Assembly: GCA_035387885.1 (NCBI GenBank)
Contig: DAOOOW010000001.1
Coordinates: 43,392 to 107,391 of the forward strand
Length of the DNA: 64,000 bases
From: a bacterium
GTDB lineage: Bacteria > Patescibacteriota > Patescibacteriia > UBA2196
Direction of reading: 5' to 3'
Both the position numbers and the translations under genes were made by a program. Of this stretch, positions 381-62,360 are shown in pieces; position 1 is the stretch's first letter, and every line of letters begins with the position of its first letter. The notes beneath the pieces were generated by a model. That model was not told the DNA's origin and did not search any database. It was given only the letters and a program-made list of their open reading frames with translations.

Positions 381-1137
381 CAACTTTGTTACTATTTCTT
401 TTTGAGAAACGGACAAATATTTCTATTTATCTCTCTAATTCGCATTAGAGTTCGGACTATATCTTCCGCGCCTCCTCGGCGGGTCTAGCGTATAGTCTCT
501 GAGGATTTTAAAGATATAAATCTTGTTTTTTCGTTTTACGATACTTACCATTAACATTCATTTTATAAGCCAAATTAATAATTTTTTTAATTCCTGCTCT
601 ATTTGAATGAGCCCCACTTTGCATTAAAAAAACTATTTGCTTAAAAATTGTAAATGACTTTTGTTTGTCAGAAATAAAATTATATTTTTCAAAAAAAGGT
701 ATAATTTTATCAATTAAATCATCTCTATTTCTAACAACAAAAACATATGTATCGTCTTTCTTATTTTTAACATGGTTTTGTTTTAAATATCCGCAATCAA
801 AATATTTCTTTATAGTTTCCAAAATTTCTAATCGTAAATAACTTTGATTAATATGAAATTCTGGAATTACTTTTATTCCCTGTTTCATTTGCGGATCCTT
901 ATAGAAAGCGACATGAAAAGTTCCTTCACCTTCAGTAAAACCAACAATATACCATGGATTTATATGCTTTAATCTTTCCTGCTGATTGTCTGCGCTCAAC
1001 ACATTGTCACTATGTTTTATATTTTTCATCTATTTATTATAACATAGTAGTGTGAGATACTTCAACTCCTGTTCCTAAAAGGAGTTGGCCAGATTTTCCA
1101 GCATTTAGCTAGATTTATAGACAGCATGGATACTCCT
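381..1137 (-). mobile_element. Group I intron interrupting 23S rRNA, encoding a LAGLIDADG homing endonuclease
   Basis: 23S collinearity breaks after ...GAGACAGT (1138) and resumes at TTGGTCTCC (380). The minus-strand base before the 3' exon is G, consistent with the terminal guanosine of group I introns. The insertion point is near the E. coli 2593 region. Confidence 0.7.
508..1029 (-). CDS. LAGLIDADG homing endonuclease (intron-encoded, single-motif)
   Basis: Contains a LAGLIDADG-type motif (WYIVGFTEGEGTF). The ORF lies wholly inside the 23S intron. Confidence 0.85.
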   Translation of the reverse strand: MKNIKHSDNVLSADNQQERLKHINPWYIVGFTEGEGTFHVAFYKDPQMKQGIKVIPEFHINQSYLRLEILETIKKYFDCGYLKQNHVKNKKDDTYVFVVRNRDDLIDKIIPFFEKYNFISDKQKSFTIFKQIVFLMQSGAHSNRAGIKKIINLAYKMNVNGKYRKTKKQDLYL

Positions 1138-1171
1138 ACTGTCTCACGACGTTTTGAACCCAGCTCGCGTA

Positions 1172-1205
<34 letters not shown>

Positions 1206-1212
1206 GCTTCTA

Positions 1213-1248
<36 letters not shown>

Positions 1249-1475
1249 GAACTCCGCCGTCGCTATGGACGCTTGGGCGGAACTAGCCTGTTATCCCCGG
1301 AGTAGCTTTTATTCAATGATCTTTCAGCCACCTATATGGCATGATCGGTTCACTAACTTATGCTTTCGCAACTGCTCGTCTTGTTGGACTTGCAGTAAAG
1401 CAGGCTTAAGGGTTTGCCCTATCAATCCCGTTTCCATCGGGATCTAGCCTACCTTTGTAAATGCCTCCGTTACTT

Positions 1476-1507
<32 letters not shown>

Positions 1508-2889
1508 ACCAGATAATGTCCCCCTATAGGGGTTAGACTTACTAAATAACAAGGGTGGTATCTCACTATTGTCCCGATTGCTCGGGGCTCCCACCTATGC
1601 TGAACATGTTAATCAATAAATCAATATCAAGTTGTAGTAAAGCTTCACGGGGTCTTTTCGTCTAACTGTGAGAAGCCAGCATCTTTACTGGCATTGCAAT
1701 TTCACCGAGTCCCTTTTTAAGACAGTTTTCAGACCGTTATGCCATTCGTGCAGGACGGAACTTACCCGTCAAGGAATTTCGCTACCTTAGGACGATTATA
1801 GTTATCGCCGGCGTTCATCCGCGCTTCGGATCAGAGCTAGTCTCGATAAATCGATTTTCACCCCTCACGTTAACGTTCGGACACTGGCCAGGCATCAGCC
1901 CCTATACGTAGTCTTGCGACTTAGCAGGGACCTGTGTTTTTGGTAAACAGTCGCCTGAAACACGTTGGTTGCACCCCACATTGCTGTGGGGAGAGCTTAT
2001 CCCGAAGTTACGCTCGTTTTTTTGCCGAGTTCCTTAAAAAAGGGTTCTCTCGTTCACCTTAGTATACTCAACCCGCCTACCTGTGTCGGTTTACGGTACG
2101 GTTACTTTAATTCATGACTCTTGGTTTTTCTTGGCATTCAATCACATGAATTCGATCCAGCCGGAGCTTTCACTTCTACCAGCCGCGCCTCGTTAGACTC
2201 GGGCGGAAATCTCAAATTCCAAATCCTAAATTCCAAATAAATATCAAATTTAAAAAATCAAATTATAAATTATTTTAAAATTTAAAAATTTAATCATTAA
2301 AAATTATTTGGAAATTGAAAATTGAAAATTGGAAATTCCGTGCCGAATGCAATGAGGCACGGCCGGAACGTCATAGCCATAGGACGCTCATTCACTTGAA
2401 TACGTCGCCAAAAAGATAAAATTAAAGTAGGACAGGAATATTAACCTGTTCTTCCATCTTGTGTGACCCTTGGGCCATACAATTAGGATCGCCTAACCCT
2501 GGGATGACAGTCATTGCCCAGGAAACCTGAGGCTTTCGGTGGGCAGGATTCTCACCTGCCTTTTTGTTACTCATGCCAACATTCTTACTTCTGCTTCCTC
2601 CACACTCCCTCGCGGGATATGCTTCGCAGGTTAACAGAATACTCCTCTACCACATCACTGCTACGCAGTGGAAATCCGAAATCACAAATTCTAAATCCGA
2701 AACAATATCTAAATTCAAAAAAATAAAATATTAAAATTTTAAATTTAAATTTTTTAAATTTGTTTCGAATTTCGATATTCGAATTTCGTGCTTCCATTGC
2801 GAAGCAATGACATCCTCATCTTCGGTATTATATTTAGCCCCGAACATTTTTGGCGCATCTTCTCTTGACCAGTGAGCTATTACGCTATC

Positions 2890-2921
<32 letters not shown>

Positions 2922-3505
2922 TGGTTGTATGAGAAAAAACACCACCTTTAACACTTAATATAAATTTAGGGACCTTAGATAGAGATCTGGGCTGTTTCCC
3001 TTTTGACAATGAAGCTTAGCCCCCACTGTCTGACTACTGGAAATTTTAACCGGTATTCGGAGTTTGGTTGGGGAGGATATCTTGCGACTCCAGCCCCATC
3101 CAGTGCTCTACCCCCGGTTAAATATTAACCAGCGCTAGCCCTGAAGCTATTTCGAGGAGAACCAGCTATTACCAGGTTCGATTGGAATTTCACCCCTAAC
3201 CACAGCTCATCCCCGCGTGTTGTACGGCGCGTGAGTTCGGACCTCCTCCCACATTTCTGAGGGACTCATCCTGGCCATGGCTAGATCACCTGGTTTCGGG
3301 TCATACACATGCTGCCTTAAACGCCCATTTAAGACTTGGTTTCCCTATGCCTTAATCCGATTAACGGACTTAGACAAGCAACATAAGTATACTCGTTGGC
3401 TCATTCTTCAATAGGCACACCATTGTCCCGATTACTCGAGACTTTGATTCTTTGAAAACGTATGGTTTCAGAAACTATTTCATCCCCCTCACCGGGGTGC
3501 TTTTA

Positions 3506-3536
<31 letters not shown>

Positions 3537-4710
3537 ATCTTCGAAAGTATTTAGCCTTGGGGCATAGTCGCCCCTGCTTCAAACAGGATTTCACGTGTCC
3601 TGCCCTACTTAAGGTTCGTCATAATGAGATCTTTTCTTTTTGTATACTGGACTATCACCATCTGTGGTATTAGCTTTCCAGCTAATTTCTACTAAGAAAA
3701 AATTTTGTAACTCATTTTTTGTGTTATAAGCCACAAAAACTGACGCCTTGCAACACCTTAAACAGCAACGGCTCATACCTTTAAATACCGCTGCTCCGCA
3801 TCGGCATGCTAATTAATACAAATTATTTACGAATTATACAAATATAAATATTCGTAATAATTCGCAATTTTAATTCGCAAAATTCGCAGTCCAATGCGAA
3901 GCATTGGTAAAACACTGTTTAGGTTTAGGCTTTTCCCGGTTCGTTCGCCACTACTACGGGAATCATTATTATTTTATTTTCCTCCGCTTACTGAGATGTT
4001 TCACTTCAGCGGGTAAGCATCCCTCACTAACTTTTTGCTCCTTTAAAATTTAATCTTAAACATTTTTTGTTCATAAATATTTTATTTTTTATTTACAAAC
4101 ATTTTTATAAAAAAGATAAAATAATAAGCAGAAAGTTAGTGAGGGATAACGCAGGTTTACTACGTTGAGTTTCCTCATTCGGAAATCTCCGGATCAAAGT
4201 TTGCTTGGGAACTCCCCGGAGCTTATCGCACCCTGCCACGTCCTTCATCGCCTTTCGAAGTCTAGGCATCCACCATACGCCATAGTTCTAATATCCTTTT
4301 AAAAATCTTTTATTTTAAAATTTGAAACGTATTTATTACGTGCCTGCCCCGCATTTGCGGGGTAAAAAGATCACGCTTGTCCCGCGACTGCGGGATAAAT
4401 TCGCTTCGTTTTTACTCGATGTACATCCAGCACTAACTTTTTGCCAGTTTAAATATTTATTCTTAAAAACATTATTTAAAAAAATAATTTCTATTTTCCA
4501 TTAAACAAGGTCAATTAAAAAATAAATAAGCAAAAAGTTAGTGCTGGATAAATTGCTTTTACTTTATATATTGATTTCTCCTTTAATAAATTTTTAAAGT
4601 CCTATCCTTATCAACTAATTTCCATCTATTATATATAAACAAAAATTAACTGATAAATTTTTTCAAAATATTCGCATTTAATTCGCAATTTCAATTCGCA
4701 CAATTCGCAT

Positions 4711-4743: not shown

Positions 4744-4887
4744 AAAAACAAAGGTACACAAAATTAACCGCTTAAAGAAAATAAGATTAGTTTTTTAGTA
4801 TACATAAATAAATATAGTTGTGGATAAGTAAATTTTTATCTTTACCTATTATAGGATATAAAAAAAAGCTTGTCAAATGTTTAAAAG

Positions 4888-39531: not shown

Positions 39532-39565
39532 GCTATTTCTCCTTTTTTCTCCCACCAGCCCCATG

Positions 39566-39652
39566 CCAGTAGGCTACTGCCTTAAAGTTATCGAGCAAAT
39601 AAGACCAAAAGATTTTATCCGCTCTTAGTTTTTAAGGCATAAGTCTACTGGC
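39566..39652 (-). promoter_or_regulatory. Conserved structured leader/operator, copy 1 (CCAGTAGACTTATGCCTTAA ...45 nt... TTAAGGCAGTAGCCTACTGG)
   Basis: About 90 nt nearly identical to the inverted copy at 61317-61406. Related to 41275-41360. Confidence 0.6.
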
Positions 39653-39821
39653 AAATAAATTTTAAAGGTGCTCTTTTTATTTAAATTAATTATCAAAATT
39701 TTTACTGCTTTATCTAACACTATAATTATCACATTTTTATCAAAAAGTGTCATTTCTGTCGACAAAATTATTAACTTGCTATTTTATTTTGCTTATATTA
39801 TAATAAAAATGAATAAATTTT

Positions 39822-39840
39822 TTGTCGAAATTTTCGACAA
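39822..39840. promoter_or_regulatory. Perfect 19-bp palindrome TTGTCGAAATTTTCGACAA upstream of the TrmB-like gene. A second TGTCGACA lies at about 39757
   Basis: Read directly. Candidate operator. Confidence 0.4.
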
Positions 39841-39862
39841 AAAACCCTAAAAACTAAAATTT

Positions 39863-40606
39863 ATGTTAGATAAAAAACTTATCCACACCCTTATTAAAAT
39901 TGGTTTAAATGAAAAAGAAGCCGAAATCTATCTGTCCTCTTTAGCTTTAGGTCCTAGCACAGTCGCTAAAATTAGCCAATCCTCTCAAATAAAACGCACT
40001 ACTGTGTATTCAGTAATTGAATCTCTAAAAGAAAAAGGGCTAATGTCTATCCAATTAAAAGGTTTCAAACAATTCTATGTGGCTGAAAAACCAGATAAAT
40101 TAGCAGATTTTTTAGAAGAAAGAAAAAAAACCCTTAAAAACGCTCTACCACAATTCGAATCTCTATATCAAATGAAAGGCATAGAAAGCGTTATTAAGCA
40201 TTATGAAGGTCTAAACAACATTAAAAGCTTATACAACAGCGTTTTAGCTGATTTAAAATTTAAAGATGATTATTTAACCATCTCTGATACTAAACGTTGG
40301 CTAGCTCAAGATGAAGAATTTTTTAATGATTTTATTAAAAAAAGAGCTAAACACAGAGCCAGAGTTCGTTTGCTTTTACAAGACAATGAAGTGGCTCAAA
40401 ACTTTAAACAATTTCAAAGAAACTATGGTATTGAAGTCAAAATATTGCCTATGGACACAGAGTTAAACACTAATTTGCTGGTTGTTCCTAAACAACTAAT
40501 TATTCAGCAATTAACCATACCCTATGAAGCTGTGGCTATAGAAAATCAAAATATAATTAATATGGGCAAGCAACTGTTTGAAATTATTTGGTCAACCTGC
40601 AAATAA
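39863..40606 (+). CDS. TrmB-family transcriptional regulator
   Basis: N-terminal wHTH (LNEKEAEIYLSSLALGPSTVAKISQSSQIKRTTVYSVIESLKEKGL). Length 247 aa. Paralog of 41662. Confidence 0.75.
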   Translation: MLDKKLIHTLIKIGLNEKEAEIYLSSLALGPSTVAKISQSSQIKRTTVYSVIESLKEKGLMSIQLKGFKQFYVAEKPDKLADFLEERKKTLKNALPQFESLYQMKGIESVIKHYEGLNNIKSLYNSVLADLKFKDDYLTISDTKRWLAQDEEFFNDFIKKRAKHRARVRLLLQDNEVAQNFKQFQRNYGIEVKILPMDTELNTNLLVVPKQLIIQQLTIPYEAVAIENQNIINMGKQLFEIIWSTCK

Positions 40607-40653: not shown

Positions 40654-41235
40654 TTAGAATGTGTGTTTCAACGCTGCCATGAATAACGGCGTTTTTTTAT
40701 CTAGGTTATAGGTTGCCGACAAAATAATTTTTTCATTACCACAAGGCAAAGAATAATTTATCGTCGGCATATGCGCTGGTTTTTCATCCAGGTAGTGCAA
40801 CACAGAGAAACCTGCACCAAAATTACCAGCTACAACATCCACAGAATGATATGCAAAACAGAAATTCGCCTTCCAAGTCGGTTTCAATACTTCACCAGCC
40901 ATTACACCAAACCAGCTGGTGAACGTTACAAACTTGGCAAAGTTTGGGGTGTAACCGACAAATGGCCCAGCCCAGACCGTTTTATAATAGACCCCAAAGC
41001 TAGGACCTACTGAAATCCCTGAGGGCAGATTTTTTAAAAAAATAAATTGCCCCAAGGTGCTGTTGAACTCGGCCATTAAAAGTATACTTTTTGCCGAATC
41101 AAGAACAGTTACTGCTCCACCCAGGCCAGAGCTAAGAGCGCTTTGGCCAGATGAAACTTTTATGTCAGTGACTTTTTGGGCCATCACCATGGTGGCAACG
41201 GCCAATACCAGCATCGCGATCATCATCTTTTCCAT
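40654..41235 (-). CDS. Secreted beta-barrel-like protein (OmpW/OmpA-like outer-membrane-protein texture) ending in a C-terminal Phe
   Basis: Signal peptide MEKMMIAMLVLAVATMVMAQ. Alternating hydrophobic beta-strand pattern. C-terminal ...LKHTF. Elevated GC. Preceded by leader copy 3. Confidence 0.5.
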   Translation of the reverse strand: MEKMMIAMLVLAVATMVMAQKVTDIKVSSGQSALSSGLGGAVTVLDSAKSILLMAEFNSTLGQFIFLKNLPSGISVGPSFGVYYKTVWAGPFVGYTPNFAKFVTFTSWFGVMAGEVLKPTWKANFCFAYHSVDVVAGNFGAGFSVLHYLDEKPAHMPTINYSLPCGNEKIILSATYNLDKKTPLFMAALKHTF

Positions 41236-41274
41236 AACCACCTCGTATTTTAGTGAATACTCCTGCCGGACTTT

Positions 41275-41360
41275 CCAGCAGAATAGTGCCTTAATTATTG
41301 TCAAACGATCAAAAGCAATCATACTTTGGTCGTTCTTAGTTTTTAAGGCATAAGTCTGCT
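41275..41360 (-). promoter_or_regulatory. Conserved structured leader/operator, copy 3 (compensatory T-to-C change in both arms)
   Basis: Arms CCAGCAGACTTATGCCTTAA / TTAAGGCACTATTCTGCTGG, against CCAGTAG.../...CTACTGG in copies 1 and 2. Confidence 0.5.
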
Positions 41361-41615
41361 GGAAATAAATTTTTAAAGTGCTGTATATCTTTTTATTTGC
41401 CATTCAAAAACTCTTCCTTGTTGTGAGAAGAGTTGAGAGTTATAAATCTAATATCTGGTGCTTTTGAGGAAATTAATCCTCTTGGCACTTTTTCTCTCTT
41501 CTCATTCTCTATTACTAGAATAGCATTTTAAAGGTATTTGTCAATAATTATGCCACATTTAAAAATGTTCTAATGGCTTAAGTTAGGCAATAATACCTTA
41601 TTTAATAAGACATGT

Positions 41616-41632
41616 TGTCAGAATTATTGACA
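41616..41632. promoter_or_regulatory. Palindrome TGTCAGAATTATTGACA upstream of the second TrmB-like gene
   Basis: Read directly. A similar TGTCAATAATTA lies at about 41549. Confidence 0.35.
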
Positions 41633-41661: not shown

Positions 41662-42393
41662 ATGGAAATAGAAGAAAAATTATTAGTTGATTTGGGGCTT
41701 TCCCCAACCGAAAGCAGAGTGTACCTAGCTGTTTTAGAGTTAAATAGCAGTACAGTCTTAAACATTGCCAAAAAAGCAGGCATCAAAAGACCAACCTGCT
41801 ATTTAAATTTGGATAATTTAGTAATCAAAGGCTATGTCACGAGAATTGAAAAACACAGTACCACTTTGTATACAGCAGAAAAACCAAGTTTTATTTTAAA
41901 TAAATATAAGGAAAAAATAGAAAACTTTAAAGATTTACTGCCTTTTTATGAAGCGAAATTTAATCGCGGTCCCAAGCCAAAGATTAGATATTATGAGGGT
42001 AAAGAAGAAATTTGGAATATTTATACAAAAATCATTTTTCCCTCTGAAGAACTGTATTTTTTTGGCACCGACATACAAAAAATAGAGAAAAACTTTCCCA
42101 ACCTGCTTGATTATTGGTTAAAGAAATTTTCTTCTAAAAATAAAAAAATGATGGAAATTGTTTCTTTTAATGAAGCCGGCTTTAAATACATGACCAAATA
42201 TAAAAAAAATCACCTCATAAAAATTATGCCAGCCAATCTGCCGGTTTTTGCTGATTCGGTTATTACAGAAAATAAAATTTTTATTATTTCTCTGAAAAAT
42301 CTTTTTGGGGTTTTGATTGAATCAGAAGACTTGGCCAAGACTTATAAAAATTTTTTCTTACTGGCTTGGCAAGCGGCTAAAAAAATGAAATAA
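41662..42393 (+). CDS. TrmB-family transcriptional regulator (paralog)
   Basis: wHTH LGLSPTESRVYLAVLELNSSTVLNIAKKAGIKRPTCYLNLDNLVIKGYV. Length 243 aa. Confidence 0.75.
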   Translation: MEIEEKLLVDLGLSPTESRVYLAVLELNSSTVLNIAKKAGIKRPTCYLNLDNLVIKGYVTRIEKHSTTLYTAEKPSFILNKYKEKIENFKDLLPFYEAKFNRGPKPKIRYYEGKEEIWNIYTKIIFPSEELYFFGTDIQKIEKNFPNLLDYWLKKFSSKNKKMMEIVSFNEAGFKYMTKYKKNHLIKIMPANLPVFADSVITENKIFIISLKNLFGVLIESEDLAKTYKNFFLLAWQAAKKMK

Positions 42394-46988: not shown

Positions 46989-48359
46989 ATGAATAATGAG
47001 CAACTTTGGCAAGCTATTTTAGGAGAACTAGAAGTTTCTATTTCTAAAGCTAACTTTACTACTTGGTTTAAAAATACTTTTGTTTTAGAACAAGAAGATA
47101 ATAAGCTTATTGTAGCCGTACCCAACACATTTACCAAAACTTGGCTAGAAAATAAATACAATAAAGCTATTATTTCGGCTCTTAAAAAAATAACCCAAAA
47201 CAAACTCAATGAAATATATTATAAAGTTTCTTTGGTGCCTGAAAAAACCACTAATTCCGTGCATAATTTAAAAAATATTATTAAAAATGATTTAGAATTA
47301 AAAAATACCGAAAACCTTAAAACCGATAATCATGGATTAAATCCTAAATATGTGTTTGAAACTTTTATTGTAGGTAAAAGCAACGAACTAGCCTTTGCAG
47401 CTGCTCAAGCAGTGGCTAAAAACCCAGGCAAATCCTATAATCCACTCTACATTTATGGCGGTGTGGGTTTAGGTAAAACTCATTTATTACAAGCTATTGG
47501 TCATGAAATAGTTAAAAAAAATCCGCAAGCCAAACTTTTATATGCAACCAGTGAATATTTTACCAATCAATTCGTTTTTGCTATTCGTTCTAATAAAACC
47601 AAGGAATTTCAAAACAAATTTAGAGATATTGATGTTTTAATTATTGATGATATTCAATTTATTTCCGGCAAAGAACAAACTCAGGAACAATTATTTCATA
47701 CTTTTAACGATTTACATCAAAATAATAAACAAATAATTTTTTCCTCTGATAGAATTCCTAAGGCTATTGCTGGTTTAGAATCAAGATTAGAATCACGTTT
47801 TGAATGGGGTATGATTGTCGATATTGCTGAACCAGACACAGAAACTAAAATTGCTATTATTGAGGCTAAATTAATTGAAAAAGGCTTTTCTTTAGATAAA
47901 AACATTGTTTTATTTTTGGCTACCAATTCCGGTCGCAATGTTAGAGAAATAGAAGGTATTATTAATCGTATTATAGCCCATTGTGATTTAATTAGTCATG
48001 ACAAAGAAGTCACTCTGGAAGACGTTAAAAATATTTTACAGACCATTAATCAACATTTACCTCAAAGTGCTATTACAATCAAAAAAATTATTAAAATTGT
48101 AGCAGAATTTTATGATGTATCATTGGATGATATTCTTAGTGAATCTAGAAAAAAAGAATTAGTTGAACCAAGACAAATTACCATGTATTTAATTAGAGAA
48201 GAAATTGGTTCATCATTTCCCAATATTGGTCAAGAACTTGGCGGTAGAGACCACACCACTGCCATGCACGCTTATGAAAAAGTTAAAAAGTTAGTTTTAG
48301 AAAATGATAAAATTAAACAGGATATTTTTTTACTCAAACAAAAACTTTATAATGATTAA
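46989..48359 (+). CDS. dnaA: Chromosomal replication initiator DnaA
   Basis: AAA+ Walker A GGVGLGKTHL. C-terminal DNA-binding domain (MYLIREE...LGGRDHTT). Confidence 0.95.
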   Translation: MNNEQLWQAILGELEVSISKANFTTWFKNTFVLEQEDNKLIVAVPNTFTKTWLENKYNKAIISALKKITQNKLNEIYYKVSLVPEKTTNSVHNLKNIIKNDLELKNTENLKTDNHGLNPKYVFETFIVGKSNELAFAAAQAVAKNPGKSYNPLYIYGGVGLGKTHLLQAIGHEIVKKNPQAKLLYATSEYFTNQFVFAIRSNKTKEFQNKFRDIDVLIIDDIQFISGKEQTQEQLFHTFNDLHQNNKQIIFSSDRIPKAIAGLESRLESRFEWGMIVDIAEPDTETKIAIIEAKLIEKGFSLDKNIVLFLATNSGRNVREIEGIINRIIAHCDLISHDKEVTLEDVKNILQTINQHLPQSAITIKKIIKIVAEFYDVSLDDILSESRKKELVEPRQITMYLIREEIGSSFPNIGQELGGRDHTTAMHAYEKVKKLVLENDKIKQDIFLLKQKLYND

Positions 48360-48611
48360 AAATTGTGTACAAATATGTTGATAAAATTATAAATAACGTG
48401 CTTAAAAATATTATTTTATTTTACAACATATTTTATTAACATAATTTTATTTTTTTTACACTTATTTGTTAATATTTTATCAACAAGTCTAAAATTCAAA
48501 TTTAAGACAATTAAAAAGTTTATACAGCATATTTTAAAAAAAATTATTGGTTATCCACTGGGCTTATTATTATCATTAAATTATATTTAAATATTAATTA
48601 ATAATAACAAT
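48360..48611. promoter_or_regulatory. Candidate oriC / DnaA-box region in the dnaA-dnaN spacer
   Basis: AT-rich, with TTATCCACT (48551-48559) and degenerate boxes. rpmH-dnaA-dnaN synteny. Confidence 0.4.
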
Positions 48612-49724
48612 ATGAAATTTACTTGTGTAAAAGAAAATTTAATTAAAGGCATCAATACTGTGGCTAGGATTTCTGGAAAAAATATTAGTTTGCCAATTTT
48701 AAATAATATTTTAATTGCTACTGCGGATGATGGAGTGGAATTTGTGGGTACTAACTTAGAAATTGGCATTAAAAATAAAATTAGAGCCAAAATTGAAGAC
48801 AAAGGCAAAATAACTGTCCCAGCCAAAACATTGGCTAGTTTTGTAAATTTTTTACCAGATGAAAAAGTAAGCTTTGAGTTAATAAAAAATAGCAACGAAA
48901 TACAAATAAAATCTGGTACTTGGGAAACAAAAATTAAAACTCAATCAGCAGAAGATTATCCATTAATTCCGGAAGTAGAAAGAAAAAATGGTTTTAAAAT
49001 TAAAGCTAAAAAATTTAAAGAAGCACTAGAACAAGTGATTTTTGCAGCGCTTTCCAATGAGGCCAGGCCAGAATTATCTGGTGGGTATATTTCATTTAAT
49101 GAAAAACAACTTACAATTGTGGCTACAGATAGTTATCGTTTAGCTGAAAAACATATAGAGTTAAGTGAAAGCATTAAAAAAGCTGGTAGTTTTATTGTGC
49201 CTATAAAAACTTTACAGGAAATTGAAAAAATAATTAGTGAAAATGATAATAACGAAGATTTGGAAATTTATTTTGAAGAAAATCAAATTATATTTTTAAT
49301 TGCTGGGGTGGAAATTAATTCCAGACTAATTAATGGACAGTATCCAGATTATAAACAAATAATTCCTACTAAAAGCAATACTCAAATTATAATTAATAAA
49401 AATGAAATTTTAAATGCAGTTAAAGCAGCTAGTGTTTTTACCAAAATTGGCATCAATGATGTTATGTTTGAATTTAAAAAACCGGCCAGTGTAATAATTA
49501 AAGCTGTTAATAATCAATTGGGTGAAAATCAAGCTGTTATTAATGGGGAGATTAATGGTGATGATAATAATATTACTTTTAATTATCATTATATTTTGGA
49601 AGGCCTAGCTAATTTAAAAGAAGAAAAATTTGTTTTAGAAATTTCTAATGCTAACAATCCTGCAATTCTTAAACCTTTAGAAAAAAAAGATTATTTGTAT
49701 TTAATAATGCCCATTCGTCAATAA
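48612..49724 (+). CDS. dnaN: DNA polymerase III beta sliding clamp
   Basis: Three-domain beta clamp, 370 aa. N-terminal MKF.C.K..L. Confidence 0.9.
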   Translation: MKFTCVKENLIKGINTVARISGKNISLPILNNILIATADDGVEFVGTNLEIGIKNKIRAKIEDKGKITVPAKTLASFVNFLPDEKVSFELIKNSNEIQIKSGTWETKIKTQSAEDYPLIPEVERKNGFKIKAKKFKEALEQVIFAALSNEARPELSGGYISFNEKQLTIVATDSYRLAEKHIELSESIKKAGSFIVPIKTLQEIEKIISENDNNEDLEIYFEENQIIFLIAGVEINSRLINGQYPDYKQIIPTKSNTQIIINKNEILNAVKAASVFTKIGINDVMFEFKKPASVIIKAVNNQLGENQAVINGEINGDDNNITFNYHYILEGLANLKEEKFVLEISNANNPAILKPLEKKDYLYLIMPIRQ

Positions 49725-58102: not shown

Positions 58103-60355
58103 ATGAAACATGAAAAACAAGTTTTTTCCGCGGAAATTGGCGGAAAAAGTTTAATTATTGAAACAGGAAAATTGGCCCAACAAACTAATGCCTCTTGCAC
58201 CATCCAATATGGTGACACAGTGGTTTTGGCCACTGCCTGTATGTCAAAAAAAATCCGTGAAGGCATGGATTTTTTTCCTTTATTGGTAGATTTTGATGAA
58301 AAACTTTACGCCGCAGGAAAAATTAAAGGTTCGAGATTTATTAAAAGAGAAGGCAAGGCATCTGATGAAGCAATTTTATCCGGTCGTTTAGTAGATCGTT
58401 CTATCAGACCACTTTTTTCTGAAACAATGAGAAATGATGTGCAAGTGGTTTTAAGCGTTTTGTCTTTTGACTCTGAAAATGATCCAGATGTTATAGGATT
58501 AAATGCCGCATCCATGGCTTTATTTATGTCAGATATTCCTTGGGCTGGACCAGTGGCAGCTGTTAGAGTCGGGATGATTGAATCTTCAACAGAGGCTGGA
58601 AAATATGAAATGGTTTTAAATCCTAGTTATGAAGCTAGAAAAAAATCGGTTTTAGATTTGGTGGTAGCTGGTACAAAAGATGAAATTGTCATGCTCGAAG
58701 CTGGAGCTAATATTATTTCCGATACTCAGATGCAAGAAGCAATAGAATTTGGACATAAACATTTGAAAAAAATAATTGATTTAATGGAGAGTATCAGAGC
58801 TAAAATTGGTTTAGCTAAAATAAATTTAGAATTAGAAATAGAAAAAACTGCTGAAGAATTAGCTTCAATCGCTAAATTAGAAGAGAAAGTTAGCGCTTTG
58901 GTAAAAGCTAAAATTGAAGAAATTTTTAGTTCTAAATCCAAAGATGAATATCATAATAATATTGATAAATTATATTTGCATACAGAAGAAACTTTAAAGG
59001 CAGATAATGATGTTTCTAAAGAAGAAAAAATAGTTGGTTTAAAAATGATTGAAAAGTTTTTAGATATTCACGCCAGAAAATTAGTTTTAGAAAAAAATAT
59101 TCGTGTTGATGGCCGAGCCATTGATGAAATTAGACCTTTAACTGCGGAAGTTGGAGTCTTACCACGAATTCATGGTTCTGGTTTATTTCAAAGAGGTGAA
59201 ACACAGGTTTTATCAGTTGTTACTCTTGGCGCGCCATCTGATGAACAGACGTTGGATACTATGGAAGAATCTAGTAAGAAACGCTATATGCATCATTATA
59301 ATTTTCCTAATTTTTCAGTAGGTGAAATTGGCCCAATGAGAGGGCCAGGTAGAAGAGAAATTGGACATGGGGCACTCGCAGAAAAAGCTTTAGTGCCGGT
59401 GATTCCAGAAAAAGAAGTTTTTCCATACACCATTCGAGTTGTTTCAGAAGTTTTAGGATCAAATGGCTCATCTTCCCAAGCTTCCATTTGCGGTTCTTCT
59501 TTGTCCTTAATGGATGCTGGGGTGCCAATTAAAGATACGGTAGCGGGTATTGCTATGGGCATGATGAGTGATTATAATAATAAAAATAATTATAAAATTT
59601 TAACAGATATTCAAGGAGTGGAAGATCATTCAGGGGACATGGATTTTAAAATTGCTGGCACAAAAGATGGAATTACCGCTTTGCAATTAGATATTAAACT
59701 TGGGGGTATTGGCTTAAATATTGTTAAAGAAACTTTGGCTAGAGCTTACGAAGCCAGATTAAAAATTTTAGAAGTTATGAAGAGCGCCATTGCCGAACCA
59801 AGAGCAGATTTATCTCCTTACGCGCCAAGAATTTATACTTTACAAATTAATCCAGATAAAATTCGTGATGTGATTGGCCCAGGTGGTAAAGTGATTAACG
59901 AAATTATTGATACCACTGGCGTAGCCATTGATATTGAAGATTCTGGTTTGGTGTTTATTACTGCGCCTAATGGCGCCTCAGCTGAAAGAGCTATGGAATG
60001 GGTGAAAAATTTAACTCGCGAAGTGCAACCGGGTGAATTCTTCACTGGTAAAGTTACTAGGCTGATGACTTTTGGAGCTTTTGTAGAAGTTTTACCAAAA
60101 CAAGAAGGTTTGGTGCATATTTCTGAAATGGCTCCATTTAGAGTTGACCGAGTTGAAGATGTGGTTAATGTGGGTGATTCAATTCCAGTTATTGTTAAAG
60201 AAATTGATGATCAAGGCCGAATAAATTTAACTATGATTGGCACAGATTTTGATTTTTCTAAGATTAAACAGTCAGCTCCGTCAGATCCACACCATGGAGG
60301 ATTTAATAGAGGGGGAAGAAGAGATGATCGAAGGGGTGGTGGATTTAGAAGGTAA
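58103..60355 (+). CDS. pnp: Polyribonucleotide nucleotidyltransferase (PNPase)
   Basis: Two RNase PH domains, KH (VIGPGGKVINEI) and S1 domains. Gly/Arg-rich C-terminal tail. Confidence 0.95.
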   Translation: MKHEKQVFSAEIGGKSLIIETGKLAQQTNASCTIQYGDTVVLATACMSKKIREGMDFFPLLVDFDEKLYAAGKIKGSRFIKREGKASDEAILSGRLVDRSIRPLFSETMRNDVQVVLSVLSFDSENDPDVIGLNAASMALFMSDIPWAGPVAAVRVGMIESSTEAGKYEMVLNPSYEARKKSVLDLVVAGTKDEIVMLEAGANIISDTQMQEAIEFGHKHLKKIIDLMESIRAKIGLAKINLELEIEKTAEELASIAKLEEKVSALVKAKIEEIFSSKSKDEYHNNIDKLYLHTEETLKADNDVSKEEKIVGLKMIEKFLDIHARKLVLEKNIRVDGRAIDEIRPLTAEVGVLPRIHGSGLFQRGETQVLSVVTLGAPSDEQTLDTMEESSKKRYMHHYNFPNFSVGEIGPMRGPGRREIGHGALAEKALVPVIPEKEVFPYTIRVVSEVLGSNGSSSQASICGSSLSLMDAGVPIKDTVAGIAMGMMSDYNNKNNYKILTDIQGVEDHSGDMDFKIAGTKDGITALQLDIKLGGIGLNIVKETLARAYEARLKILEVMKSAIAEPRADLSPYAPRIYTLQINPDKIRDVIGPGGKVINEIIDTTGVAIDIEDSGLVFITAPNGASAERAMEWVKNLTREVQPGEFFTGKVTRLMTFGAFVEVLPKQEGLVHISEMAPFRVDRVEDVVNVGDSIPVIVKEIDDQGRINLTMIGTDFDFSKIKQSAPSDPHHGGFNRGGRRDDRRGGGFRR

Positions 60356-60759: not shown

Positions 60760-61007
60760 TTAAATAGGATTTTATTCGTAGGGACAGGTTTGAAACCTGT
60801 CCTTTTGGTTTGGTTGGGTTTTTATCCTCTCCTTATAAAACAGGTACCTATTTTTGTTGGCTCCAATCTCCTGATTGGAGCCTTAGTGCTTCATTAGTGT
60901 AATTAAAATATAAAAAATATAATAAAGAGGCATTGTGTCTCCAGTCAGGAGACTGGAGACAACCAACAACGGCAAACTTTAATTTGAAAAGGCGGGGACT
61001 AATTACT

Positions 61008-61039
61008 TGTGGATAAAATTTATTAATGGTTGTGGATAA
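61008..61039. promoter_or_regulatory. Two consensus DnaA boxes (TGTGGATAA) in direct orientation
   Basis: Exact 9-mers at 61008-61016 and 61031-61039. Confidence 0.45.
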
Positions 61040-61138
61040 AACCTTACTTTTGTTATAAAACTATAACTTTAAATATGATTAATTTTGGCTTAATTTAGCA
61101 TAAAATAGCATTAAAAAAGCTAATTTTGATATAAATAC

Positions 61139-61167
61139 TTGACAAATATTTTAATCTGTGCTATAAT
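61139..61167 (+). promoter_or_regulatory. Perfect consensus sigma70 promoter (TTGACA-17-TATAAT)
   Basis: Read directly. Followed by a transcript of about 100 nt ending at terminator CCCCTGCTCTTCTCTAAGAACGCGGGGTTTTT (61243-61275). Confidence 0.6.
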
Positions 61168-61316
61168 GACTGCAGAGAATGAGAGGAGAAAAAAGTCTAG
61201 AAAGAATTAATTCTTTTAAGGCGTTGAAATTAGTTTTTAATTCCCCTGCTCTTCTCTAAGAACGCGGGGTTTTTAAATCGAAAAATATAAAAATAGTACT
61301 TTGATAATAAAAATAT

Positions 61317-61406
61317 TGCCAGTAGACTTATGCCTTAAAAACTAAGAGCGGATAAAATCTTTTGGTCTTATTTGCTCGATAACTTTAAGGCAGTAGCCTA
61401 CTGGCA
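61317..61406 (+). promoter_or_regulatory. Conserved structured leader/operator, copy 2 (inverted duplicate of 39566-39652)
   Basis: About 90 nt near-identical to the reverse complement of copy 1. Precedes the receiver-like ORF. Confidence 0.6.
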
Positions 61407-61449
61407 ATGAGGCTGGTTGGAAAAAAATAAAAAAAGAAAAGAGGAAACA

Positions 61450-62004
61450 ATGAAGGTTTTGATCGTTGAAGACCAGCTTAGGCTGGGTGGAAGAGGTGGC
61501 CGCTGGTTGGAATCAGAGGAGTTTTGCTCTCTACTCGAGCAAGCTACGGGTTATGAAATTTTTCACTGCCAGGATGTATTTTCGGCAGTGGAAATTTTAA
61601 GGAAGGAAAAAATTGATTTTGTGGTAACAGATATGGGGTTGCCACAAAAGGCAGGAGAAGAGCCTTCTCCTGTTGCGGGACTGCAGATAGTAGAAATCCT
61701 TAAGAGTGAAAAAATTCCTTTTAAGGTTTTTACAAGTGTCACTCACTGCGCACATGCTTTAACTGCTGCAGCAGAGGCTGGTCTGATAACAGCAGAATGG
61801 GCCATGTGGGTGCAAGATCACCATGTGGAAATGGAATACGCGGCTTCGGCCGAGGACGACCCACGGTTTCCTCCCAAGTTAGATAGAATCGGGGAATGGA
61901 AACACGGCGGGATGGTGATCTTCGGATGTTTCGTTGTTGGAGGAAAAAGACCTGTTTTTTTGGAGGATTTTATAAAAAAATGGGTCAAAGTAATATCAAT
62001 GTAG
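61450..62004 (+). CDS. Receiver-domain-like (CheY-like) protein with a C-terminal extension, GC-rich
   Basis: MKVLIVEDQ...GYEI....DVFSAVEIL...KIDFVVTDMGLP...GLQIVEIL......KVFTSV. Phosphoacceptor-like Asp in VVTDMGLP. About 50% GC. Confidence 0.55.
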   Translation: MKVLIVEDQLRLGGRGGRWLESEEFCSLLEQATGYEIFHCQDVFSAVEILRKEKIDFVVTDMGLPQKAGEEPSPVAGLQIVEILKSEKIPFKVFTSVTHCAHALTAAAEAGLITAEWAMWVQDHHVEMEYAASAEDDPRFPPKLDRIGEWKHGGMVIFGCFVVGGKRPVFLEDFIKKWVKVISM

Positions 62005-62360
62005 AAATCTCCCTCACTTACGCAAAGCACCGTGTAAGTGAGGGACTACTGCCCTTGCCGCAAAACAGCGCGGCAAGGGCTTTTTATTTTTTTAAAAAAT
62101 ATGTTATGCTTAAGGTATAAAATTGTTAAAATTGATTTTTAGTGATAAAATATAGCTGTAAGAAACTTAATTAAATCATTAACTTCAGCGCATCTATTTT
62201 TTTAAAAGGAAATTCAATAAAGGCTTCTGTGGTAATTAGAAAAAGCAGGGGCTTTTTATTTTTTTTAAATTTGCTATAATTAATTTGAATTATTCTATAA
62301 TCTATGATACATTAAAGTTATCAATTTTGTTAACTTTCGTGTATTATTAATTTTTAGCCT

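Follow-up and report, generated by a model that had tools for sequence, protein, structure and literature searches.

Within a 64,000-nucleotide (nt) stretch of contig DAOOOW010000001.1 (GenBank assembly GCA_035387885.1), which was analysed at its full length and is termed the window below, an uncultivated small-genome bacterium of the Patescibacteriota carries a small variable island past pnp, consisting of a HicB-like gene, a gene for a receiver-like protein, and AbiEii/AbiEi. Upstream of the receiver-like gene lie two DnaA boxes, a sigma-70-type promoter, a short RNA module that ends in an intrinsic terminator, and a long hairpin (Table 1). An initial annotation, made from the sequence alone, had proposed a DnaA-responsive or attenuated transcription unit, or else a small RNA (sRNA) gene beside a regulon. 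The features it listed are all present, and its interpretation was borne out in part. On the strength of the predicted folds we lean towards the view that the ~100-nt transcript forms the initial half of a long mRNA leader that is structured and includes a conditional stop, and not a separate sRNA or peptide gene.

The leader elements are not confined to this locus. The long hairpin has three copies in the window, each ~40 nt upstream of one of three unrelated orphan genes, which we refer to as cargo genes A, B, and C after the respective copy; copy A is the one at the receiver-like gene. Promoter, short RNA, and terminator recur as a unit on the minus strand at 41544-41401, in front of the copy C hairpin, and also in a contig of another species (L004), which was reached via homologs of cargo C and encodes a cargo protein with 71% identity. 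Copy B has the hairpin without the short RNA module and possesses promoters of its own.

Table 1. Positions of the leader units, DnaA boxes, and origin region in the window; promoters, RNA structures, and terminator are predictions.
Feature	Position	Strand	Basis or remark
DnaA box 1, TTGTGGATAAAA (9-mer core 61008-61016)	61007-61018	+	exact consensus; 12-mer direct repeat
DnaA box 2, TTGTGGATAAAA (9-mer core 61031-61039)	61030-61041	+	exact consensus; 12-mer direct repeat
Sigma-70-type promoter, copy A (TTGACA 61139-61144; 17-nt spacer with TGc; TATAAT 61162-61167)	61139-61167	+	12/12, extended -10
Short RNA module, copy A (first domain of 5' leader)	61174-61274	+	folds, RNAalifold consensus, covariance model
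P1 5' strand	61175-61189	+	module part
P2 hairpin	61195-61222	+	module part
P3 element	61223-61241	+	module part, weak
P1 3' strand	61242-61256	+	module part, followed by terminator
Conditional intrinsic terminator, copy A (hairpin 61244-61269; T5 61270-61274)	61244-61274	+	-11.0 kcal/mol
26-codon open reading frame, MRGEKSLERINSFKALKLVFNSPALL	61179-61259	+	judged non-coding; no Shine-Dalgarno sequence, length not conserved
Second leader domain, copy A: long imperfect hairpin, invariant 24-nt core AGACTTATGCCTTAAAAACTAAGA	61314-61409	+	-46.7 kcal/mol, z = -6.4
Cargo gene A: 184-aa stand-alone receiver-like protein (Shine-Dalgarno GAGG 61441-61444)	61450-62004	+	Pfam, PDB
Copy C promoter and short RNA (TTGACA 41544-41539; TGc-TATTCT 41522-41517; RNA 41513-41401)	41401-41544	-	138.9 bits, covariance model
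Copy C leader hairpin	41272-41365	-	fold, covariation
Cargo gene C	41235-40654	-	after copy C hairpin; signal peptide, beta-rich
Copy B leader hairpin	39564-39653	-	no short RNA module upstream; window copies, fold
Cargo gene B	39531-39205	-	after copy B hairpin
Perfect DnaA box	39879		~55 nt upstream of copy-B promoter, orientation as in copy A; inside first TrmB-family codons
Perfect DnaA box	54021		58 nt upstream of recA
Perfect DnaA box	12629		just past TATAAT, upstream of pilin-like gene
Perfect DnaA box	4819		~+22 of 23S rRNA promoter
dnaA and dnaN with oriC-type spacer	46989-49724	+	Pfam, GC-skew minimum, spacer boxes

A two-domain leader with a putative conditional terminator

The textbook TTGACA-17-TATAAT promoter of the initial annotation is confirmed as a predicted element: all 12 hexamer positions agree with the consensus, and the -10 region is extended (TGnTATAAT). 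Only three 12/12 promoters occur in the whole window, another one of them being the 23S rRNA promoter. Transcription is predicted to start near 61174 and would meet, ~100 nt downstream, a terminator hairpin of 10 bp with one 2-nt bulge, followed by U5. The claim of a strong terminator at this distance thus holds for the presence of hairpin and U5, but not for the strength, as the hairpin is moderate, was missed by a consensus scan, and is out-competed in the predicted fold of the full transcript.

In the minimum-energy folds of copies A and C and of L004, the purine tract at the 5' end (AGAGAAUGAGAGGAG in copy A) pairs with the pyrimidine tract (CCCCUGCUCUUCUC) in a helix of 13 pairs, P1, which encloses hairpin P2 and a weak third element. 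The RNAalifold consensus likewise consists of P1 and P2, not of the terminator. Since 7-8 nucleotides (eight in copy A) are common to the 3' strand of P1 and the 5' arm of the terminator, the two structures are mutually exclusive. The P1 state (-26.6, -25.7, and -30.7 kcal/mol in copy A, copy C, and L004, respectively) exceeds in stability, by 4-6 kcal/mol, the best state containing the terminator (-21.6, -21.9, and -24.8 kcal/mol), and equilibrium pair probabilities amount to 0.79-0.92 for P1 versus 0.008-0.21 for the terminator (0.92 versus 0.008 in copy A). Because P1 outcompetes the terminator in these predictions, read-through is the predicted default. In each of the three versions, the whole leader of ~300 nt is predicted to form two domains that fold independently of each other.

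The second of these domains, the long hairpin, reaches ~-46 kcal/mol with z ~-6 in its copies, shows six covarying pairs, and has no match among the Rfam families. With 97.9% identity between copy C and L004 it is the best-conserved segment of the locus between the two species. The short RNA module follows with 95.6%, compared with 89.9% in the TrmB coding sequence, 87-89% in the rest of the intergenic DNA, and 71.5% in the cargo coding sequence. The module divergence of 4.4% contrasts with 23.4% at four-fold sites of the neighboring gene (Fisher p = 3e-4) and with 12.2% in other non-coding DNA (p = 0.03). Each of the five substitutions in the L004 module either falls in a loop or preserves or creates a pair (a terminator A-U becomes G-U, and P2 gains a G-C). 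Judged by these sequence comparisons, the module is under purifying selection, and the low divergence together with the pair-preserving changes argues for a selected RNA (or DNA) element and against a chance combination of promoter and terminator.

Copy C carries the full set of parts: a promoter of the form TTGACAAATA ... TGCTATTCT, the conserved AGAGAAUGAGArGAGA at the 5' end, the hairpin, the pyrimidine stretch CUCUUCUC, and a terminator with a final U5. The promoter parts TTGACAAATA and TGCTAT are kept in both copy C and L004. P2 pairing is retained between copies A and C through compensatory changes (GUCU...AGGC versus GUGC...GCAC, and GAAAGAA/UUCUUUU versus GAGGA/UCCUC), and the terminator stems are unrelated (CCCCUGC/GCGGGG in A, CUCUUCU/GGAAGAG in C), with U5 at the end of both. 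Both alternative structures are hence found again in the paralog and in the ortholog, i.e., in three sequences in all. Downstream of the terminator, no credible promoter was detected before the gene in copy C and L004, which means that expression of the cargo there requires read-through.

Of the possibilities offered by the initial annotation, an attenuated transcription unit therefore is the best fit, given a conserved helix whose 3' strand is used again as the 5' arm of the terminator, and genes that lack a convincing promoter of their own in paralog and ortholog. According to this model, the promoter would drive one long mRNA for the receiver-like gene with a leader of ~275 nt made up of two structured domains, the first of which (61174-61274) would act as a terminator/antiterminator attenuator. 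With P1 formed, as in the default state, RNA polymerase would read through into the second hairpin and the gene. If the purine tract were held away from P1, the terminator could form and an RNA of ~100 nt would be released. The tract might be withheld by a protein that binds its GAG triplets, by another RNA, or through a rearrangement that depends on a ligand. Copy A has three consecutive GAG triplets at 61175-61187 (GAG-AAU-GAG-AG-GAG, spaced by 3 and 2 nt), and these, together with the conservation of the P1 strands in sequence, make a protein or RNA partner plausible. That termination is regulated, and by what, we infer from the competing structures and their conservation.

Several observations weigh against such a switch. 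Copy A contains a 9/12 promoter-like site (61301-61328) that could drive the gene independently, and copy B lacks the module altogether, showing that it is dispensable for this type of gene. The folding energy of the copy A module is unexceptional (z = -1.5), and equilibrium folding leaves co-transcriptional kinetics uncaptured. P1 is conserved in sequence and does not covary. Moreover, the module is known in three distinct versions, two of which are nearly identical, so that the covariation rests on a single comparison of paralogs.

With no ligand or protein effector identifiable and no Rfam match, the module might also be a constitutively leaky terminator or a stabilizing 5' structure, which sets the level of expression or protects the 5' end of the mRNA without sensing anything. 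The stable fold closed by the very 5' end of the transcript resembles 5'-terminal stabilizer hairpins. Under this assumption, however, it is hard to explain why copies A and C have unrelated terminator stems over the same pyrimidine tract, and the sequence conservation of the P1 strands exceeds what pairing alone requires. We thus regard a module without switching as quite unlikely.

An independent sRNA gene, producing an abundant trans-acting RNA of ~100 nt while the downstream gene is transcribed separately or by leakage, has to be considered as well. SreA and SreB of Listeria exemplify that riboswitch leaders, once terminated, can work in trans, and here a 12/12 promoter, on paper as strong as that of the rRNA, is followed at ~100 nt by a hairpin with U5. 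The purifying selection on the module, with both P1 strands conserved in sequence like seeds, and the 9/12 site beyond the copy A terminator would suit an sRNA gene, too. Its terminator is, however, predicted to be out-competed by P1 in every version, and the gene in copy C and L004 would be left without any other credible promoter. In addition, hairpin and gene invariably follow directly downstream of the module, on its own strand. A covariance model of the module recovered copies A and C but nothing further in the window, and no additional copies in contigs L002, L004, and L005; no targets were found. Duplex energies between module and leader were no better than those of shuffled sequences. 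An independent sRNA gene consequently appears unlikely to us; of the earlier suggestion of an sRNA gene beside the regulon, what stands is that premature termination might yield an RNA of ~100 nt as a by-product, a separate gene being less likely.

The 26-codon open reading frame (ORF), initially noted as lacking a clear ribosome-binding site, does exist, but coding is unsupported. In principle, the segment could encode a small protein or a leader peptide whose translation controls termination: the AUG is kept in copies A and C and L004, the first five codons are alike (MRGEK, MRREK), and the ORF of copy A ends inside the terminator loop. Yet a Shine-Dalgarno sequence is missing, transcription is predicted to start only ~5 nt from the AUG, and a 1-nt indel shortens the frame to 10 codons in copy C and L004 (MRREKKCQED and MRREKRCQED). 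Translation would accordingly end within the P2 loop in copy C but within the terminator in copy A, with opposite predicted effects, and we consider a coding function very improbable.

Known RNA families were searched with Rfam 15, using gathering thresholds for the whole window and E <=10 for positions 60900-61500, and nothing credible emerged. The best weak match was the PyrR leader (20.8 bits, gathering threshold 54); this candidate was dismissed, as the score is far below gathering and the only phosphoribosyltransferase in the window (49770) is Apt, not PyrR. Scans of larger collections for exact patterns were equally unproductive. A 21-mer of the leader had one chance match, inside a Pedobacter coding sequence, in the genome-contig collection. 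In the metagenome-contig collection, a degenerate leader pattern gave 0 matches and a short-RNA pattern eight, all in unrelated coding or low-complexity sequence, and pattern scans of the viral-contig collection gave 0 matches. As far as these collections and our tools show, the element is restricted to this lineage and hence not previously described, and this restriction limits the comparative evidence.

Some further observations concern the module itself. In copy A, an 11-mer of the short RNA (UUAGUUUUUAA, 61230-61240) is perfectly complementary to the core of the downstream hairpin (UUAAAAACUAA, 61335-61345). Pairing between module and leader was rejected as a mechanism, because the complementarity is interrupted in copy C and L004 (3+3+4 bp) and the duplex energies do not surpass those of shuffles. 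No tandem or direct repeats were detected within 61174-61274. One contig (L022; Logan ERR7570002) agrees with the window as far as 61186, a position within the short RNA, and diverges in its last 27 nt (GCGAATTCACCCCCGAAATGCAATTTTA), reflecting either an assembly chimera or an alternative junction. Several of the metagenome contigs L023-L027 break off within the leader region, which a repeat would lead one to expect. The organism is contained in digester-type samples; data sets carrying it include JGI 3300009782, 3300009771, and 3300010429, ENA ERZ27257431, and SRR11845627.

Cargo genes behind constant leaders

The cargo proteins provided no lead to a function. The receiver assignment of cargo A relies on a Pfam Response_reg score of 25.8 bits, which is under the cutoff of 30.2, and on PDB receiver matches with E-values of 0.007-0.02; its sole homolog found is 96% identical. 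Cargo C ends in ...KHTF, resembling an outer-membrane protein, and is a member of a protein family with ~83 clusters at the 50% identity level, for which neither Pfam nor PDB yielded a match, even when searched as a profile of 30 sequences.

Strains that are nearly identical elsewhere differ markedly in the genes that follow the constant leaders. Compared with contig L005, cargo C (40654-41235, minus strand) has 80.4% nucleotide identity, its 5' region 99.8%, and the next gene 100%. Alignment of window positions 61770-62360 to contig L002 revealed that the 3' half of cargo A has diverged, and that L002 additionally has two genes (164 and 222 aa) which repeated terminator hairpins enclose. Next to copy B as well as copy C lies a divergently transcribed TrmB-family regulator (39863-40606 and 41662-42393; 24% identical to each other). 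Around these units (39815-39847 and 41590-41625), a perfect palindrome of 27 nt (TTTTTTGTCGAAAATTTCGACAAAAAA) shares positions with the -35 of the copy-B promoter and probably serves as an operator.

The two leader domains are thus the best-conserved sequences at their loci, and the genes they would control differ sharply between near-identical strains. This combination of constant leaders and variable genes points to a dedicated control system for the latter, which are probably involved in surface or signaling functions. One could go further and propose a class of conditional-termination RNAs, either riboswitches or the targets of an unknown GAG-binding protein, that forms together with the invariant hairpin a constant, highly expressed cassette in front of strain-hypervariable cargo, with the copy A promoter coupled by DnaA to the replication status. 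We put this extended scenario forward tentatively and think it improbable as a whole. If the attenuator model were true, it would nevertheless add a new family of cis-regulatory RNAs from a poorly known uncultivated lineage.

DnaA boxes near the replication origin

The initially reported 9-mer TGTGGATAA is indeed present twice in direct orientation on the plus strand upstream of the copy A promoter, the true repeat unit being the 12-mer TTGTGGATAAAA with starts 23 bp apart. Both boxes match the 9-mer consensus (TTATCCACA / TGTGGATAA) perfectly. It had been cautioned that a similar density of boxes throughout the genome would indicate a compositional artifact. Within the window (33% G+C), six perfect boxes were observed versus 0.65 expected (~9-fold), a count of at least six being reached in 0 of 100 shuffles. 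Five of the six are intergenic, compared with a non-coding share of the window of ~20% (p ~0.002), and 61008/61031 is the sole spot with two perfect boxes close together. The extended 11-mer TGTKGATAAAA occurs four times (0.34 expected), twice at 61007-61041 and twice in the spacer between dnaA and dnaN; being common to both places, it makes the locus boxes look like the origin boxes of the organism itself.

The presence of dnaA and dnaN in the window (gene order rnpA-rpmH, dnaA at 46989-48359, dnaN at 48612-49724; identified by Pfam), together with a cumulative GC skew that is lowest at 46-48 kb, places the chromosomal oriC ~12.5 kb left of the locus. The spacer (48360-48611) contains TGTTGATAAAA on both strands (48376 and 48475). 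At 48548-48575 it reads TTATCCACT-GGGC-TTATTATTATCATTA, a succession of box, GC cluster, and trinucleotide repeats which resembles the unwinding region of Bacillus and, by this analogy, is probably the opening site of the origin. No such trio array follows the boxes at the leader locus, and a second replication origin or unwinding site at that position was accordingly rejected.

Because perfect boxes are enriched, intergenic, and found at promoters, their pattern favors real DnaA binding, and the two TTGTGGATAAAA repeats most likely are real DnaA-binding sites in an origin-proximal region. With boxes that are non-random, a genome that encodes DnaA, and oriC nearby, control of the downstream promoter by DnaA is plausible, and the boxes could either modulate this promoter or merely bind or titrate DnaA. 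As would be required of a titration locus, the position is origin-proximal, both the dnaA-dnaN spacer and the lowest point of the GC skew being ~12.5 kb away. A datA-type cluster, which comprises five boxes (PMC3245932), is not seen, as only two boxes are present and the next one with <=1 mismatch lies ~800 bp away at 60160, inside pnp.

A role of the boxes unrelated to the promoter is nearly as probable as the opposite: they might bind or titrate DnaA close to the origin, be left over from a local 23-bp duplication, or belong to the 117-nt inverted repeat that lies 40 nt upstream. Three findings speak against control of the promoter by DnaA and in favor of such a role. The boxes are 100-130 bp upstream of the -35, a natural variant (metagenome contig L026; JGI 3300009771, Ga0116155_10084868) lacks exactly one 23-bp unit corresponding to window positions 61007-61029 and retains a single box, and copy C has no DnaA box, only TGTGGcATAA beside its -35. 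Proximity to oriC is in line with titration, too, given that in Bacillus origin-proximal clusters of boxes titrate DnaA (PMC3245932). On the other hand, datA and the Bacillus clusters contain far more than two boxes, and the other perfect boxes are located at promoters, namely at +22 of the rRNA promoter, at the -10 of the pilin gene, upstream of recA, and, oriented as in copy A, ahead of the copy-B promoter. This association with several promoters suggests that DnaA acts as a transcription factor. With boxes at the rRNA and pilin-gene promoters, recA, and the leader units, DnaA may even be a general transcription factor in this regulator-poor genome.

The 117-nt inverted repeat (60854-60969; arms 60853-60904 and 60915-60966) is near-perfect and the sole copy in the window. 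As RNA it would fold with -52.9 kcal/mol (z = -9.6), and each arm contains one 20-nt palindrome (CTCCAATCAGGAGATTGGAG and CTCCAGTCAGGAGACTGGAG), the two differing by a compensatory pair; a miniature mobile element, a structured RNA, and an insulator are candidate explanations. In the A+T-rich stretch that separates boxes and promoter, an 11-nt unit (TAGCATTAAAA) occurs 2.4 times in succession (61096-61120). The 23S rRNA promoter (4819-4876, minus strand) is a 12/12 promoter with TTGACA at 4876 and TATAAT ending at ~4848, and has its perfect box TTATCCACA ~22-30 nt past the -10. The 23S rRNA gene itself (508-4296, minus strand) has insertions of >100 nt and, directly 3', an ORF for a LAGLIDADG endonuclease (508-1029). 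No 16S or 5S rRNA gene was found in the window.

Comparison with known regulatory systems

A transcription-factor role of DnaA and clusters of DnaA boxes close to the origin have been described, with sda, ywlC, and yydA of B. subtilis (PMC3245932, PMC4447404) and gidA of P. aeruginosa (PMC13438810) as examples, and origin-proximal boxes in Bacillus either modulate downstream genes or titrate DnaA (PMC3245932, PMC4447404). By analogy with these cases, DnaA possibly regulates transcription here as well. The locus shares with them consensus boxes that are intergenic, near oriC, and upstream of a promoter, but differs in having two boxes only, which are far from the -35 and one of which is dispensable in a natural variant.

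The order of promoter, short RNA, terminator, and protein gene is reminiscent of type III toxin-antitoxin systems such as ToxIN, in which the antitoxin RNA is made up of tandem repeats. This option was rejected, since the module RNA has no tandem repeats and the downstream proteins are receiver-like or secreted and beta-rich, not ToxN-like nucleases. A reading of the long hairpins as integron attC-like sites was discarded likewise, because the units are neither arrayed nor co-oriented and each has a promoter of its own. The Listeria riboswitch RNAs SreA and SreB show the same layout of a strong promoter, a terminator ~100 nt on, and a gene on the same strand, and a short RNA would be released upon termination in either case, although no target in trans was found for the module RNA.

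In the trp and pyr leaders of Bacillus, the purine-rich 5' strand of an antiterminator binds a protein, TRAP or PyrR, and competes with the terminator. The module resembles them in its purine-rich 5' strand with GAG triplets, and PyrR provides its best, though weak, Rfam match. TRAP leaders, however, contain 9-11 (G/U)AG triplets at a spacing of 2-3 nt, and a TRAP-binding leader was rejected because copy A has just three consecutive GAG triplets at 61175-61187. For PyrR, the score remains at 20.8 of the 54 bits needed, the window encodes Apt only, and the genes to be regulated are orphans.

The "ON" platform of the pbuE (ydhL) adenine riboswitch is built in such a way that the 3' strand of P1 doubles as the 5' arm of the terminator, and formation of P1 leads to read-through. 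Unlike this riboswitch, the module matches neither the purine nor any other riboswitch family in Rfam, its P1 is long (13 pairs) and stable without a ligand, and the genes downstream are not metabolic. The architecture is nevertheless alike: the P1 helix shares a strand with the terminator and encloses P2 and a weak P3 in a junction-like element of ~80 nt. As modeled here, the element is best read as a lineage-restricted terminator/antiterminator leader that would apply a regulatory principle already known.

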